From: Candidatus Dormiibacterota bacterium | GTDB taxonomy: Bacteria; Chloroflexota; Dormibacteria; Aeolococcales; Aeolococcaceae | Assembly (NCBI GenBank): GCA_963718525.1 | Contig: OY970355.1 | Location: forward strand, 1,856,001-1,920,000 | Reading direction: 5' to 3' | Length of the DNA stretch: 64,000 nt | Shown: piece after piece, positions 15,866-17,940 of the stretch | Position numbering within the stretch: the stretch's first letter is position 1 | Layout: each line of letters begins with the position of its first letter | The notes under the pieces: generated by a model | Seen by the model: the letters and a program-made list of their open reading frames with translations, nothing else | Databases searched by the model: none | Told to the model about the DNA's origin: nothing | Program-made: the position numbers and the translations under genes

Positions 15866-15960
15866 ACCTACATTTGCGGATTGACGGGCACCACGTCCTC
15901 CACTGGGGGCACGGCGGGGCGACCAACCTTGAGAACCTCGTCAATCGTTAATACATCCCC
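15866..15960 (+). repeat. Motif A + HNH left-arm fragment + motif B copy 4
   Basis: 15889-15942 matches 4623-4676 at 50/54; flanked by ACCTACATTTGCGGAT and AATCGTTAATACATCCCC. Confidence 0.9.
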
Positions 15961-16029
15961 CAGAGCCCGCCGAGTGGGATCTGCTTCGGTTGGGCGAGGA
16001 ACTCCTAGTGCTCGCGCCTTGCGACGACC

Positions 16030-16047
16030 GTGAATCCCGGCCTGCCG
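16030..16047 (+). repeat. 18-bp direct repeat C, copy 1
   Basis: GTGAATCCCGGCCTGCCG, exact copy at 16941-16958. Confidence 0.82.
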
Positions 16048-16123
16048 ACGTCTGCGGTTGGCGGTCCGGGCCAAAGAGGAAACAGCCTCCGACGTCGCTA
16101 TTCGGGTTCATTCGCCGACACGA

Positions 16124-16819
16124 TCAGTCGGACTGGCGATCCTGTTGGTCTTCAGCCGTCAGGCTGGCTGATGGATTTGGCGCTGGTGCAGCACCCGCTG
16201 ATTGGGCAAGGTTGGTGCTGTCCGGCGATGCGATGGTGACGATTCGGGGCGCCTGCTCGACGCGGATTCTGTCCTGGAGGCCCTCAATCCCGCCCGTCAG
16301 CCAACCGGGAACACTAACAGCGTCGATGCCCAGGGGACGCCGCGCCCGGTGATCCATCCTGATGAGGGTTCGCGTGAGCCACTCGAAATCCTCATAGACG
16401 CCGTGACCTTGTTCAGCCCGCCACTGCTGGACATAGGGCTCAAGGACCGTCCACCAGATAAAGATGGCACTCCCGAACAAACGACAGAGCAGCTTGATGT
16501 CAAGGTGCCCGCTCCGGCTGAGCGAGCCCAAGCCTTCAAAGTAGTTGCCAACGGCTATTCCGGCCCCGGCAGGGATCTCGCGCTTATCGCGGGCGGCGAC
16601 GAGGATCGCGAGTCGATGGCGAAGAATGCGCTCGTCGTCGAACTGTTGGGATAATTCATTGACCAGCTCGACCGCGCGCCCGCTCCGGGCGAGTCGGACC
16701 TGGCGGTATATCGCGATGAATGTGATCGCAAGGGCCGTGAACTGGAGCGCGGCCCAGAACCACTCCGAGCCCGGTCCGATGAATGCCATCCCCTTGGTGT
16801 TGATGAACGTCACGTCCAT
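16124..16819 (-). CDS. Hypothetical membrane-anchored protein (DUF4760-like)
   Basis: GGAGG RBS, N-terminal TM, NYFEGLG...YEDFEWL pattern. Confidence 0.7.
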   Translation of the reverse strand: MDVTFINTKGMAFIGPGSEWFWAALQFTALAITFIAIYRQVRLARSGRAVELVNELSQQFDDERILRHRLAILVAARDKREIPAGAGIAVGNYFEGLGSLSRSGHLDIKLLCRLFGSAIFIWWTVLEPYVQQWRAEQGHGVYEDFEWLTRTLIRMDHRARRPLGIDAVSVPGWLTGGIEGLQDRIRVEQAPRIVTIASPDSTNLAQSAGAAPAPNPSASLTAEDQQDRQSD

Positions 16820-16940
16820 ACCTCCGTTGCGCTAGCAGGATGGGCGGGACGATACAAATCGCGGGATCCGCAAGCAACGAGGGACGCGAGCTAGCCTCGG
16901 AGGTCAGCACCAGCGTCGAGTTCAGTGTGGCAGCCCTATA

Positions 16941-16958
16941 GTGAATCCCGGCCTGCCG
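16941..16958 (+). repeat. 18-bp direct repeat C, copy 2
   Basis: Exact copy of 16030-16047. Confidence 0.82.
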
Positions 16959-17142
16959 GGCGCGATGTCGACTCCCCAGAGGCTAGTGTCGGGCGGTCTC
17001 AGCGCCGCAAGTCAAGCAGCGACCTGGACGCTGACGCTTCGCCGAACAAGAGATCCCCTCCACGCTGACAGTCGCTGGGCCGTCCTCCTCGGCCGAGAGG
17101 GGCTTACAAGAGGTCGGGGCCCCTCTTGCTGGCGAAAAGCAT

Positions 17143-17715
17143 CTAAGGATCGGGATTTGGCCCGGACGACGGCCGCCATTGACGCCTGATCAGCCCGTAT
17201 ACCCACGAGTCCGACACCTCGCCGTTCACGACGCAGTCCTCCCGCAACGTCCCTTCACGCACGAATCCGAGCTTTTCCAGGACGCGGGCAGAAGCCGCAT
17301 TGCGCGTATCGGTCTCGGCCTGGACTCGATTCAGGTCCAGCGTGTCAAATGCCCACTGCAGCAAGGCGCGCCCGGCCTCCGTCGCGTAGCCGTGACCCCA
17401 GGCCGCATCGTCAAGGCAGAAGCCCATCGACGCACTGCGGTAGTCAGGGTTCCACCGGGTCAGACCGCACCATCCGATGAACCCATTGTCGGAAATACGG
17501 TCCAGGGCCAGCCGCGCCCCGCTGCCGTCCTCTTCCATGCGCCCACAATCCGCGACAAAGCGCTCGGCCCGCGCACGTTCGCTCCAGGGCGGCGCATCCC
17601 AGTAGCGCAGCACGTAGGCACTACTGTGCAGCGCGAAGAGGGCATCCGCGTCCGCGCTGGTGAAGGGGCGCAACCGCAGGCGAGCGGTTCGCAGTGTCGG
17701 GGTGGGCAAGGACAT
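17143..17715 (-). CDS. GNAT acetyltransferase, RimJ/RimL family
   Basis: TARLRLRPF, WGHGYATEA, NAASARVLEKLGFVREG. Confidence 0.93.
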   Translation of the reverse strand: MSLPTPTLRTARLRLRPFTSADADALFALHSSAYVLRYWDAPPWSERARAERFVADCGRMEEDGSGARLALDRISDNGFIGWCGLTRWNPDYRSASMGFCLDDAAWGHGYATEAGRALLQWAFDTLDLNRVQAETDTRNAASARVLEKLGFVREGTLREDCVVNGEVSDSWVYGLIRRQWRPSSGPNPDP

Positions 17716-17855
17716 TCGTGCCATCTTGCCTTTCCATGAGCGAAGGCGGGGCAACCGCCTACGCGAGCCCGAGACCCGGACCCCGCTGAGAGTCCAATCT
17801 ACAAGAGTGCAGCTCACGACAGGCGAGGTCCGGAACCCGGGCAAGCCAGATCGGC

Positions 17856-17940
17856 AATCTGGTCCAGCTCTGCCACCGCCATCACTGGAAGGTGCATGAG
17901 GGCGGCTGGCTGGTGTCAGGTCCGAGGAGGGCCGAATCCT
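17856..17940 (+). pseudogene. HNH right-arm fragment (NLV.LCHRHHWK.HEGGW...)
   Basis: Matches 4668-4753 with 6 substitutions and 1 gap. Confidence 0.9.

Follow-up and report, generated by a model that had tools for sequence, protein, structure and literature searches.

Integration of the prophage-like element phiRv1 in REP13E12 by Rv1586c was reportedly described by Bibb and Hatfull in 2002 and 2005. The parts of the published accounts consulted here place phiRv1 within a REP13E12 repeat, with the serine recombinase Rv1586c (PMC9317374), attribute integration in the REP13E12 repeats of Mycobacterium tuberculosis to this large serine recombinase (LSR) (PMC9317374, PMC1470463, PMC10654092) and class phiRv1 as similar to phage-inducible chromosomal islands (PICI-like; PMC10654092). 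Here we analyse 64,000 nucleotides of the genome of Candidatus Dormiibacterota bacterium (bases 1856001-1920000 of a single 3.34-Mb contig, OY970355.1; hereafter the window, with coordinates prefixed w). At w15889-17940 the HNH motif of a DUF222-HNH (REP13E12-type) remnant is split by a two-gene insert. An earlier note made from the DNA letters, here called the original prediction, had drawn attention to this segment.

Tandem islands are known from other recombinase systems. In staphylococci, islands of the staphylococcal cassette chromosome (SCC) type, SCCmec and pseudo-SCC, sit at rlmH/orfX and use CcrAB or CcrC recombinases. Pavlovic and co-workers reportedly described, in 2004, accretion between cis-mobilizable elements (CIMEs) and integrative and conjugative elements (ICEs). 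A further parallel, as far as the consulted portion of the source goes, is the tandem accretion of CIMEs, ICEs and IMEs (integrative and mobilizable elements; PMC5704250). The sections consulted on Dehalococcoides describe islands in tandem downstream of a single target, ssrA, bounded by a short direct repeat of it and with a CcrB-family serine recombinase beside one end; fifteen of these islands have no integration module and are read there as cis-mobilizable elements (PMC3146451).

The segment w15889-17940 is probably the distal unit of a comparable tandem accretion array. Recombination would have been site-specific, at the N-L-V codons (AAYCTSGTC) of the DUF222-HNH remnant, and would have involved an LSR system of the phiRv1 kind.

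Anatomy of the split HNH locus

The original prediction had matched two arms around the insert to an intact paralogue in the window, and BLASTN against the entire 3.34-Mb genome returned both matches. The left arm, w15889-15942, aligns without gaps to w4623-4676 (92.6%, 50/54, E 2.5e-16), and the right arm, w17856-17940, aligns to w4668-4753 (91.9%, 79/86 columns, 6 mismatches and 1 gap of 1 nt, E 4e-28). Pairwise alignment of the arms with the intact copy agreed. The features of the locus and of its reference gene are:

w3525-4802, + strand: intact DUF222-HNH paralogue (Pfam DUF222 5.2e-18, HNH 1.9e-4), the reference for both arms, with an unoccupied N-L-V site at w4668-4676
w15866-15942, + strand: left half of a 'mini-HNH', consisting of a 22-nt lead, CTACATTTGCGGATTGACGGG, then HNH codons, HHVLHWGHGGATNLENLV (nhmmer HNH-left model, E 3.8e-17)
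w15934-15942, + strand: core copy 1, AACCTCGTC (N-L-V)
w15940-16047, + strand: element left end, with the 21-nt motif GTCAATCGTTAATACATCCCC (1 mismatch to the 21-mer) and a conserved head of ~85 nt
w16030-16047, + strand: 18-nt direct repeat GTGAATCCCGGCCTGCCG, copy 1 (repeat search: exact, 100%, copies 911 nt apart)
w16124-16819, - strand: DUF4760 membrane-protein gene, cargo (Pfam PF15956, E 6.4e-12)
w16941-16958, + strand: 18-nt direct repeat GTGAATCCCGGCCTGCCG, copy 2 (repeat search)
w17143-17724, - strand: GNAT acetyltransferase gene, RimJ/SpeG-like, cargo (Pfam Acetyltransf_3 1.1e-36; phrog_1249 5.4e-22)
w17770-17855, + strand: right-end module, ending ...GCAAGCCAGATCGGC directly before the core
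w17856-17940, + strand: HNH 3' half, NLVQLCHRHHWKVHEGGW..., with core copy 2, AATCTGGTC, at w17856-17864; the sole 3' half of the array

The arms are the two halves of one HNH motif, separated at AAYCTSGTC by 1913 bp (w15943-17855). The left arm terminates with AACCTCGTC and the right arm starts with AATCTGGTC; in frame they read ...DGHHVLHWGHGGATNLENLV and NLVQLCHRHHWKVHEGGW... respectively. The claim that they belong to a single motif holds. Both are also matched (86.5% and 88.3%) by a remnant without interruption in a relative, G021:C12. The two 9-bp core copies are unlike at 2/9 positions. Relative to the intact copy, the left arm has three synonymous changes (GGG/GGA, AAC/AAT and CTC/CTG) and one Ala/Glu replacement (GCG/GAG). 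This 3/4 proportion had been noticed before and taken as a sign that the arm came from a functional paralogue, an argument with only four changes to draw on. The right arm is closer still to an orphan 3' remnant at genome 3052901-3052980 (95% over 80 nt, BLASTN).

Removing the insert does rebuild a contiguous motif, as had been proposed, but what is rebuilt is only the 5'-truncated mini-HNH. HNH-like sequence begins at ~w15877, and the locus carries the HNH part alone, without the DUF222 part. At the other side the right arm is cut off at w17940, where it gives the stop codon of a convergent GGDEF-EAL gene; the HNH 3' half stops where GGDEF-EAL homology to relatives begins. The GGDEF-EAL gene itself occupies w17939-20755 (- strand), and the junction with the HNH arm creates its stop codon (w17936-17960). 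In three relatives (G015, G017 and G021) its frame runs on into ~60 nt of common sequence that is missing in this genome.

Three intact DUF222-HNH copies are present, 98.6-98.8% identical over ~1.2 kb (w3551-4795; genome 5-1226 and 539402-540646). Their repeat unit is almost exactly the gene itself. All three are unbroken at N-L-V despite two cognate-type LSR genes in the genome. N-L-V is also the exact end of several DUF222-HNH 5' parts in the genome and the start of several orphan 3' parts.

Elements in G010 and G017, the latter with an LSR, have left ends that match that of the insert at 87-92% identity. In both, the conserved head after the end motif stops at the motif of the 18-nt repeat, as it does here, and G010 has a further copy of that motif 1.5 kb on. 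The repeat may mark a second kind of junction inside units. At the opposite end, the right-end module is 78.8% identical over 85 nt to genome 2951621-2951702 (- strand), where it again precedes a core, AACCTGGTC, and then an end motif; the 85 nt before the right core are a recurrent end module. According to the original prediction, HNH homology extending upstream of N-L-V on the right side would have pointed to independent remnants. The nhmmer HNH-left model had no match upstream of w17856 at E<=10, and a position weight matrix (PWM) for the same arm, described below, gave p=0.088; the original prediction survives this check.

The DUF4760 gene has no PADLOC, PHROGs or NCBIfam match, and all NCBIfam matches of the GNAT gene fall below their cut-offs. 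PADLOC has no match for DUF4760, GNAT, LSR or HNH. The GC content of the insert (0.62-0.66, against 0.68 for the window) is uninformative. Scanning w15700-18000 for promoters and terminators found 0 promoter-like sites and 1 terminator-like site, not above shuffled sequences. No terminal inverted repeats were found at the insert ends (repeat search).

A site family and its arrays

The sequence to the right of the left arm, GTCAATCGTTAATACATCCCC, belongs to a family with 12 copies in this genome at <=4 mismatches (13 by nhmmer). The copies share AACCTS followed by GTCMATCGYTAATACAxCCCC, which we call the end motif. A subset shares a further 40-85 nt, and the copies are unrelated beyond. Across the genus, 118 copies of the degenerate 21-mer (<=2 mismatches) occur in 28/42 genomes; the reversed-pattern control gave 0 in every genome. 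These sites are clustered and co-oriented, with a spacing of 0.4-5 kb (for example G042:C6 70079/71733/72468/73106 and G006:C2 773327/774360/776593/779203). Folding of the end motif and head as RNA (w15930-16050) gave a z-score of 0.08, no structure signal, and no Rfam family reached its gathering score in the whole window; around the insert there was only a chance-level RF01495 match (19 against a 37-bit cut-off). By eye, a partial hairpin, GCCGCCGA..TCGGCGGC, can be drawn in a subset of copies.

Besides the site at w15940, the window has three sites:

w6090-6116, + strand: array site 1, core AACCTC and 21-nt end motif GTCAATCGTTAATACAACCCC (0 mismatches to the 21-mer; nhmmer E 4e-16)
w10129-10155, + strand: array site 2, with a decayed HNH left half (HHAGATNLA/NLV) as left flank (nhmmer E 5.3e-15; HNH-left PWM p=0.0025)
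w10882-10908, + strand: array site 3 (21-mer match; nhmmer E 3.2e-17)

The order in the window is thus four sites, w6096, w10135, w10888 and w15940, all on the + strand, and then one 3' half at w17856. Nothing recognisably HNH lies left of site w6096; the end of the intact gene is 1.3 kb upstream. To map ten further array loci, we combined the end-motif model with tblastn searches for two HNH types and for LSR1 (an LSR of this genome, see below) and with a six-frame pattern for the HNH right half. The locus L143 (G053) starts with a DUF222-HNH 5' part, continues with four sites and closes with one 3' half; L144 (G045) and L145 (G049) have a 5' part, three sites and one 3' half. Four more (L024, L027, L142 and L149) have a like layout with a head that is a remnant or unrecognised. 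Each mapped array has exactly one 3' half, always distal. The layout in the window equals that of the other arrays, and w15889-17940 is therefore the last unit of a four-site array and not, as first thought, an isolated insertion in a gene.

Array units without a recombinase span 0.4-5 kb and carry 1-3 accessory genes. The cargo includes TetR, SnoaL, DUF4760, cation-efflux, SGL, cupin, PadR/HAAS, GyrI-like, GGDEF, SDR, GntR with ABC, and histidine kinase genes, as well as small unknowns. No LSR1 homologue was found in the ten fetched array loci (tblastn), and no recombinase or transposase domain among 48 open reading frames (ORFs) of seven arrays (E<=1e-4).

Individual units vary in their distribution. 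The first array unit of the window (w6281-10029) has CO/xanthine-dehydrogenase-type genes, the small subunit on the + strand and convergent with the medium and large subunits on the - strand; this block is 90% identical in one relative only, G023, which itself has no end-motif sites. The cargo of the second unit (0.75 kb; w10169-10803) recurs at 85-93% in G021, G047, G012 and G019. In two of these, G047 and G019, ~215 nt separate it from an end-motif site, and its orientation is opposite to that in the window. At genome 1396390-1397854 (L007), an end-motif site and an HNH 3' half enclose a second small recombinase-less unit, 1.4 kb long and with a single GNAT gene. The left neighbour of this unit is 94% identical to a unit of G008; the unit itself is unlike.

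To locate the limits of shared sequence, site pairs with similar left flanks were compared over +/-1.5 kb:

genome 1397854 versus G008: 94.4% over 1506 nt, homology up to +5 of the motif, unrelated beyond
L145 versus L146: 97.4%, homology from -522 to +20
L148 versus L149: 95.5%, homology from -664 to +19
L022 versus L026: 94.4%, homology from -192 to +18

Homology breaks off within the site, between core and end motif: it ended at +5 to +20 in 4/4 examined pairs sharing the left unit. A fifth pair, L141/L149, had the same unit with an internal indel. At site w15940, only the left module is present in G012 (-74 to +20) and only the right module in the LSR element of G017 (-9 to +106). Since the two modules are shared with different genomes, the core is a breakpoint at which modules assort independently. 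The units thus behave as exchangeable modules between genomes, and the repeated N-L-V codons as the common core of a site-specific recombination site, much as the original prediction had it. Core position 6 is C beside the end motif and G beside HNH 3' halves, and the right core copy of the split locus is HNH-type at positions 3 and 6. Because the core polymorphism tracks the flanking partner, exchange probably takes place within the first five core bases (AAYCT).

A block of ~600 nt left of the mini-HNH, w15201-15809, is 85-90% identical in G008, G024, G009 and G011, where the sequences on either side of it differ. Within the block, a small ORF at ~w15333-15569 (- strand) has an internal repeat, GTFAxGQE....HPEL. 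This ORF has no PADLOC, PHROGs or NCBIfam family, and a longer ORF, w15333-15944, has no Pfam match.

The left flanks of 56 distinct sites, from this genome and the fetched loci, were analysed. An in-frame HHxxHW flank is present at 12/56. Seven of the twelve extend upstream into CxxPGC and are host genes by virtue of that continuation. Four, including w15866-15942, share the truncated mini-HNH after a common lead (...CAACNTACATTTGYGGATTGAYGGG/CACCAC). The twelfth (L028), truncated as well, differs from these in its sequence upstream. A 27-nt HNH-left PWM, tested against all 4019 genomic AAYCTS positions, added 17 decayed HNH left halves (p<0.01), so that 29/56 left flanks are of HNH type.

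The mini-HNH left module, with an identical 5' boundary, also occurs in G008 (twice), G012, G015 and at genome 2463069. The left arm had been taken for a broken gene; it is indeed an HNH left half, but as a recurrent module (the 22-nt lead and truncated half) found in at least 4 other places. It may be the end of the preceding unit and not a freshly broken gene. Uninterrupted mini-HNHs stand at array ends (L027:6028-6197; genome 2462960-2463091). Judged by their sequence, these and the G021:C12 remnant represent the appearance of the locus without insert. A 22-nt quasi-palindrome, TCAACCTACA-TT-TGTGGATTGA, lies ahead of every mini-HNH (w14622-14654 and w15866-15888; genome 2463069; L024, L025 and L027). 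At w14622-14654 it forms the last codons (QPTFVD, stop) of an HTH_20 gene, w13948-14643, with no more than 8 nt of HNH-like sequence after it.

Recombinases and the origin of the unit

Two orphan 3' parts of this genome adjoin genes with Resolvase, Recombinase and Zn_ribbon_recom domains (Pfam), at genome 1001826-1003250 (LSR1) and 2467627-2469024 (LSR2). The distance between the core and the LSR start codon is ~25 nt. In PHROGs, LSR1 has a match to phrog_95, 'integrase' (1.5e-93). At the far ends of the 24-kb and 12-kb LSR stretches, HNH 5' parts run into the core and end motif of this same family (genome 1025666 and 2479739). A 5.4-kb LSR element in a relative, G017:C165, has the same layout, and its end motif and head are 92% identical to w15931-16046. 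LSR genes or their stumps adjoin the distal 3' half in 4/4 cases: G000 twice, G017:C165 and a truncated one in G010:C4, where 69 resolvase-domain residues are left beside the 3' half, together with a capsid fragment.

The association extends well beyond the genus. We surveyed LSR loci at one genome per species and obtained 80 loci with LSRs 50-63% identical, 77 of them with at least 120 nt of flank. Their sources span many Actinomycetota, among them Nocardioides, Arthrobacter, Geodermatophilus and numerous species of Mycobacterium. Right at the junction stands an HNH 3' half (N-x-x-L-C-x-x-H-H) in 36/77, and a reverse-complemented HNH 5' half (HHxxHWxxGGxTEL) in 10/77, the latter labelled Mycobacterium or Mycolicibacter apart from one actinobacterial metagenome-assembled genome. 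This compares, for the 46/77 junctions, with 2 (3' half) and 0 (5' half) in 306 control windows from the same loci. The N-L-V codons would thus be the crossover point for a widespread LSR clade. In the mycobacterial members (L084-L137), the integrase end abuts the reverse-complemented HNH 5' half, an orientation opposite to that in this genus.

The arm on the LSR side, with consensus ATGGGGTCAGATTAACAA..., is strongly conserved (35 arms) and mirrors the left-end motif (GGGGG..TATTA). It is recognisable clade-wide (ATGGGGKCAGAYTARCRA..., L061-L140), and within it, 25 nt from the crossover, the LSR start codon appears as its reverse complement. Read on the LSR strand, TAATCT is the hexamer found 6 nt before the ATG. 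LSR expression may depend on sequence joined across the crossover. One version of this idea, in which the end motif gives a TTGAC -35 box to the LSR in the circle, was rejected; the LSR elements have GTCCAT or GTGCTT, not GTCAAT.

The two LSR stretches of this genome (1001.8-1025.7 kb, L001 and L002; 2467.6-2479.8 kb, L003 and L004) carry defence-like and plasmid-like genes. Among them are Prim-Pol, HTH_17, a small resolvase, DUF499 with HEPN_Swt1, an SNF2-type helicase, NOV_C, TIR_2, Rep_trans, and IS110 and Mutator transposases.

The sequence of events that we favour is as follows. Integrative elements encoding an LSR would use the HNH motif as their bacterial attachment site (attB). The junction left on the HNH 5' side would be 'HNH-left / core / GTCMATCGYTAATACAxCCCC', and that on the 3' side 'LSR start - 25-nt arm / core / HNH-right'. 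The same sites also bound many small units without a recombinase, placed head to tail between one HNH 5' half and one 3' half. The unit w15943-17855 would have entered, or been left at, an uninterrupted mini-HNH closing the array, and its insertion would have split that mini-HNH into the left arm, w15866-15942, and the right arm, w17856-17940. An LSR, in trans or formerly in cis, presumably made both junctions of the unit, and we infer that arrays grow at their distal end.

A number of observations weigh against this account. The unit has no recombinase domain and no transposase (Pfam); only DUF4760 and GNAT are present, as the original prediction stated. Its interior looks composite, with the exact 18-nt repeat flanking the DUF4760 gene on both sides. 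The right end of the insert fits neither the LSR-side arm (PWM p=0.38) nor the HNH-left arm (PWM p=0.088, not significant), which leaves one junction of a type that neither model describes. The arm models give no evidence that an LSR could bind this end. Hence, the proposal of a non-autonomous integrated unit survives in so far as no recombinase is encoded, while the reading 'non-autonomous but mobilizable' is not supported by the arms. Neither the whole unit (w15943-17855) nor any DNA match to the GNAT gene was found in 40 relatives, a tally that includes G027, G032 and G036, on which no other statement rests. LSR1-clade genes are rare in the genus, with 3 full-length loci at >=58% identity against 118 sites. 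No excised form or circle was seen in metagenome contigs.

The array flanks are a further difficulty. At p<0.01, 0/56 fit the LSR-side arm (PWM from the 35 arms). This result also disposed of internal flanks ending ..TGGCC, which by eye had seemed to be LSR-side arms. On the PWM results, internal junctions are mostly 'HNH-left / core / end motif' and not joined LSR-side/end-motif sites. Thus, integration of LSR-less circles by the canonical reaction between phage (attP) and bacterial attachment sites cannot alone explain the arrays.

Could the unit instead be the deletion remnant of a once autonomous LSR element, which lost its recombinase and most genes but kept its left end, some cargo and the HNH 3' junction? 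Its left end and head are 92% identical to those of the LSR-bearing G017 element, such elements do decay (the resolvase stump and capsid fragment of G010:C4), and this genome's 12-kb LSR array has a DUF4760 gene beside its left end (2478.3-2478.8 kb). We nevertheless consider this origin unlikely. Although the 27 nt before the core do not match the conserved LSR-side arm (p=0.38), the core is the exact starting point of HNH homology. A second copy of the right-end module, at genome 2951.6 kb, also stands directly before a core, which random deletion would not give. Moreover, HNH-left matches are absent from inside the LSR elements of this genome, so that units with HNH-type right ends are not simple LSR remnants. 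Still less probable, in our view, is that the arms are independent remnants of different events or elements, with a mosaic of leftovers between them. The patchy distribution of local sequence speaks for such a mosaic: w14650-15208 occurs only in G015, w15201-15809 in other contexts in G008, G024, G009 and G011, and the head w15943-16046 in G010, G017 and G008, while DUF4760 is widespread and the GNAT gene occurs nowhere else. The 18-nt repeat on either side of DUF4760 points the same way, as do the different best matches of the arms (three full copies for the left, the orphan at genome 3052901 for the right). Against this, both junctions lie at one 9-bp core in the same orientation and frame, the arms give one motif, the uninterrupted G021:C12 matches both, and arrays elsewhere share the layout. 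Even as independent remnants, both junctions would still be products of one site-specific system.

A split without site-specific recombination, by homologous recombination or gene conversion among paralogues, HNH-driven homing, or transposition with a 9-bp target duplication, strikes us as very improbable. DUF222-HNH genes are multi-copy and near-identical, and the 9-bp repeat superficially resembles a target-site duplication. REP13E12 loci, moreover, are gene-conversion hotspots in M. tuberculosis according to the part of the source consulted (PMC13061034). However, transposase and terminal inverted repeats are both lacking, and the core copies differ at 2/9 positions according to which partner flanks them. 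The end motif is conserved over 118 sites joined to unrelated left flanks, and LSRs are associated with HNH halves at 46/77 junctions versus 2/306 controls.

Whether the unit w15943-17855 moves at present is doubtful and unproven. The check was made on assembled contigs. Those of X2 and X3, two more samples from what may be the source study, span both occupied junctions with no differences, and X5, from a second study, has identical pieces of the insert. A joint 15933>17856 (X2, depth 46; X5, depth 4.3) was considered as an empty site and rejected, as it carries the upstream sequence of an intact paralogue (its loose end is identical to w4593-4622); X3 has a similar record of paralogue type. 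A search for empty-site alleles in related genomes had been suggested by the original prediction. Three relatives share the GGDEF-EAL gene (G015, G017 and G021) and none has such an allele: homology stops at w17941/17956 and the HNH remnant is missing altogether. For G015, the HEAT-gene side is on another contig.

Accretion through an LSR system remains the account we prefer. A bolder extension of it, which we put forward tentatively, is that a serine-integrase site underlies an integron-like cassette system in the genus. The unit exchanged would be the attL-type hybrid 'HNH-left half / AAYCT / GTCMATCGYTAATACAxCCCC'. Small recombinase-less cassettes with such hybrids at their ends would be excised and inserted in trans, either by a phiRv1-family LSR, possibly aided by a directionality factor and acting on site pairs not accepted by canonical serine integrases, or by an unrecognised enzyme. 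Each insertion would regenerate a distal mini-HNH as landing pad, and w15889-17940 would be the latest capture.

Comparison with described systems

The junctions appear to belong to a widespread, phiRv1-like, LSR-linked system. The likeness consists of a multi-copy DUF222/HNH (REP13E12-type) target, an LSR at one element end and a short common core. Mycobacterial LSRs 51-54% identical to those found here abut HNH halves, and the capsid-gene fragment kept in one relative's element (G010:C4) is consistent with the PICI-like character of phiRv1. At the locus itself, HNH halves and the short core are present; an LSR at the element end is lacking in the unit and present in its siblings (genome 1001826 and 2467627; G017:C165). 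Set against a quasi-symmetric attP of ~50 bp with two integrase half-sites, the left end has 1/21 mismatch and the LSR-side arms mirror the motif, while the right end of the unit gave p=0.38. Unlike phiRv1, the unit w15943-17855 has no integrase, the genus has multi-unit arrays of small accessory-gene units, and the orientation relative to the HNH gene is reversed with respect to mycobacterial loci.

Every property looked for in an accretion array was found: co-oriented units at one target, units without integration genes, and exchange at the sites. The layout is repeated in L143, L144, L145, L024, L027 and L142. As SCC islands are generally known, they resemble these arrays in the use of LSRs, in one chromosomal target gene, in head-to-tail chains with att-like repeats, and in recombinase-less members. 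They differ in that orfX stays intact; here the target is an HNH catalytic motif, multi-copy, and destroyed. The units here are also far smaller, and there is no Ccr orthology, the similarity of LSR1 to CcrA/CcrB being weak and far below NCBIfam cut-offs. In the portion consulted on Dehalococcoides, the target is the single-copy ssrA, the repeat is 20 bp and preserves the gene, and the islands are larger, with a multi-gene integration module (PMC3146451). Compared with CIMEs, the LSR element here is always distal, beside the 3' half. CIMEs use tyrosine integrases, which accept att pairs not recombined by canonical serine integrases; in the present arrays the attL type (HNH-left / core / end motif) accounts for half of the internal junctions, and an LSR-side arm is seen in none.

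Integrons, as commonly understood, share with these arrays small co-oriented units of 1-3 genes, a conserved separating site and shuffling between genomes at the sites. Cargo typical of cassettes is also present here (GNAT, SnoaL, TetR, glyoxalase-like and small unknowns). The arrays differ in having no tyrosine integrase at their head, a site that is not a folded imperfect palindrome, and mixed gene orientation within units. No Phage_integrase domain lies beside the array heads; the sole tyrosine-integrase fragment (L032:47-553) is outside the array, beyond the 3' half. The site shows no attC-like character either (fold z-score 0.08 for w15930-16050; no Rfam match). Nor does the unit resemble a transposon or insertion sequence, as transposase and terminal inverted repeats are absent and the 9-bp copies are unlike at 2 positions.

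Within the limited literature searched, we found no description of cassette arrays at DUF222/HNH genes. The arrays tie a phiRv1-type integrase family to chains of small recombinase-less units at the codons of the HNH catalytic motif. They also offer a concrete reason why DUF222-HNH/REP13E12 genes often appear 'partial', namely that the N-L-V codons would be the crossover point of an LSR clade. Serine integrases are valued as strictly directional tools that join one attP and one attB, and canonical attP x attB chemistry does not explain the hybrid internal junctions. As fossils, the arrays would amount to no more than an ordinary graveyard of integrative elements. Should the integrase or a partner really process hybrid sites, they would represent a natural serine-recombinase counterpart, in Actinomycetota, of integron- or SCC-type capture, and would supply a set of new and easily testable att-site pairs. 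Taken together, the arrays differ from SCC, the ssrA islands and CIMEs in their target, in having units as small as cassettes and in internal junctions that are predominantly hybrid.

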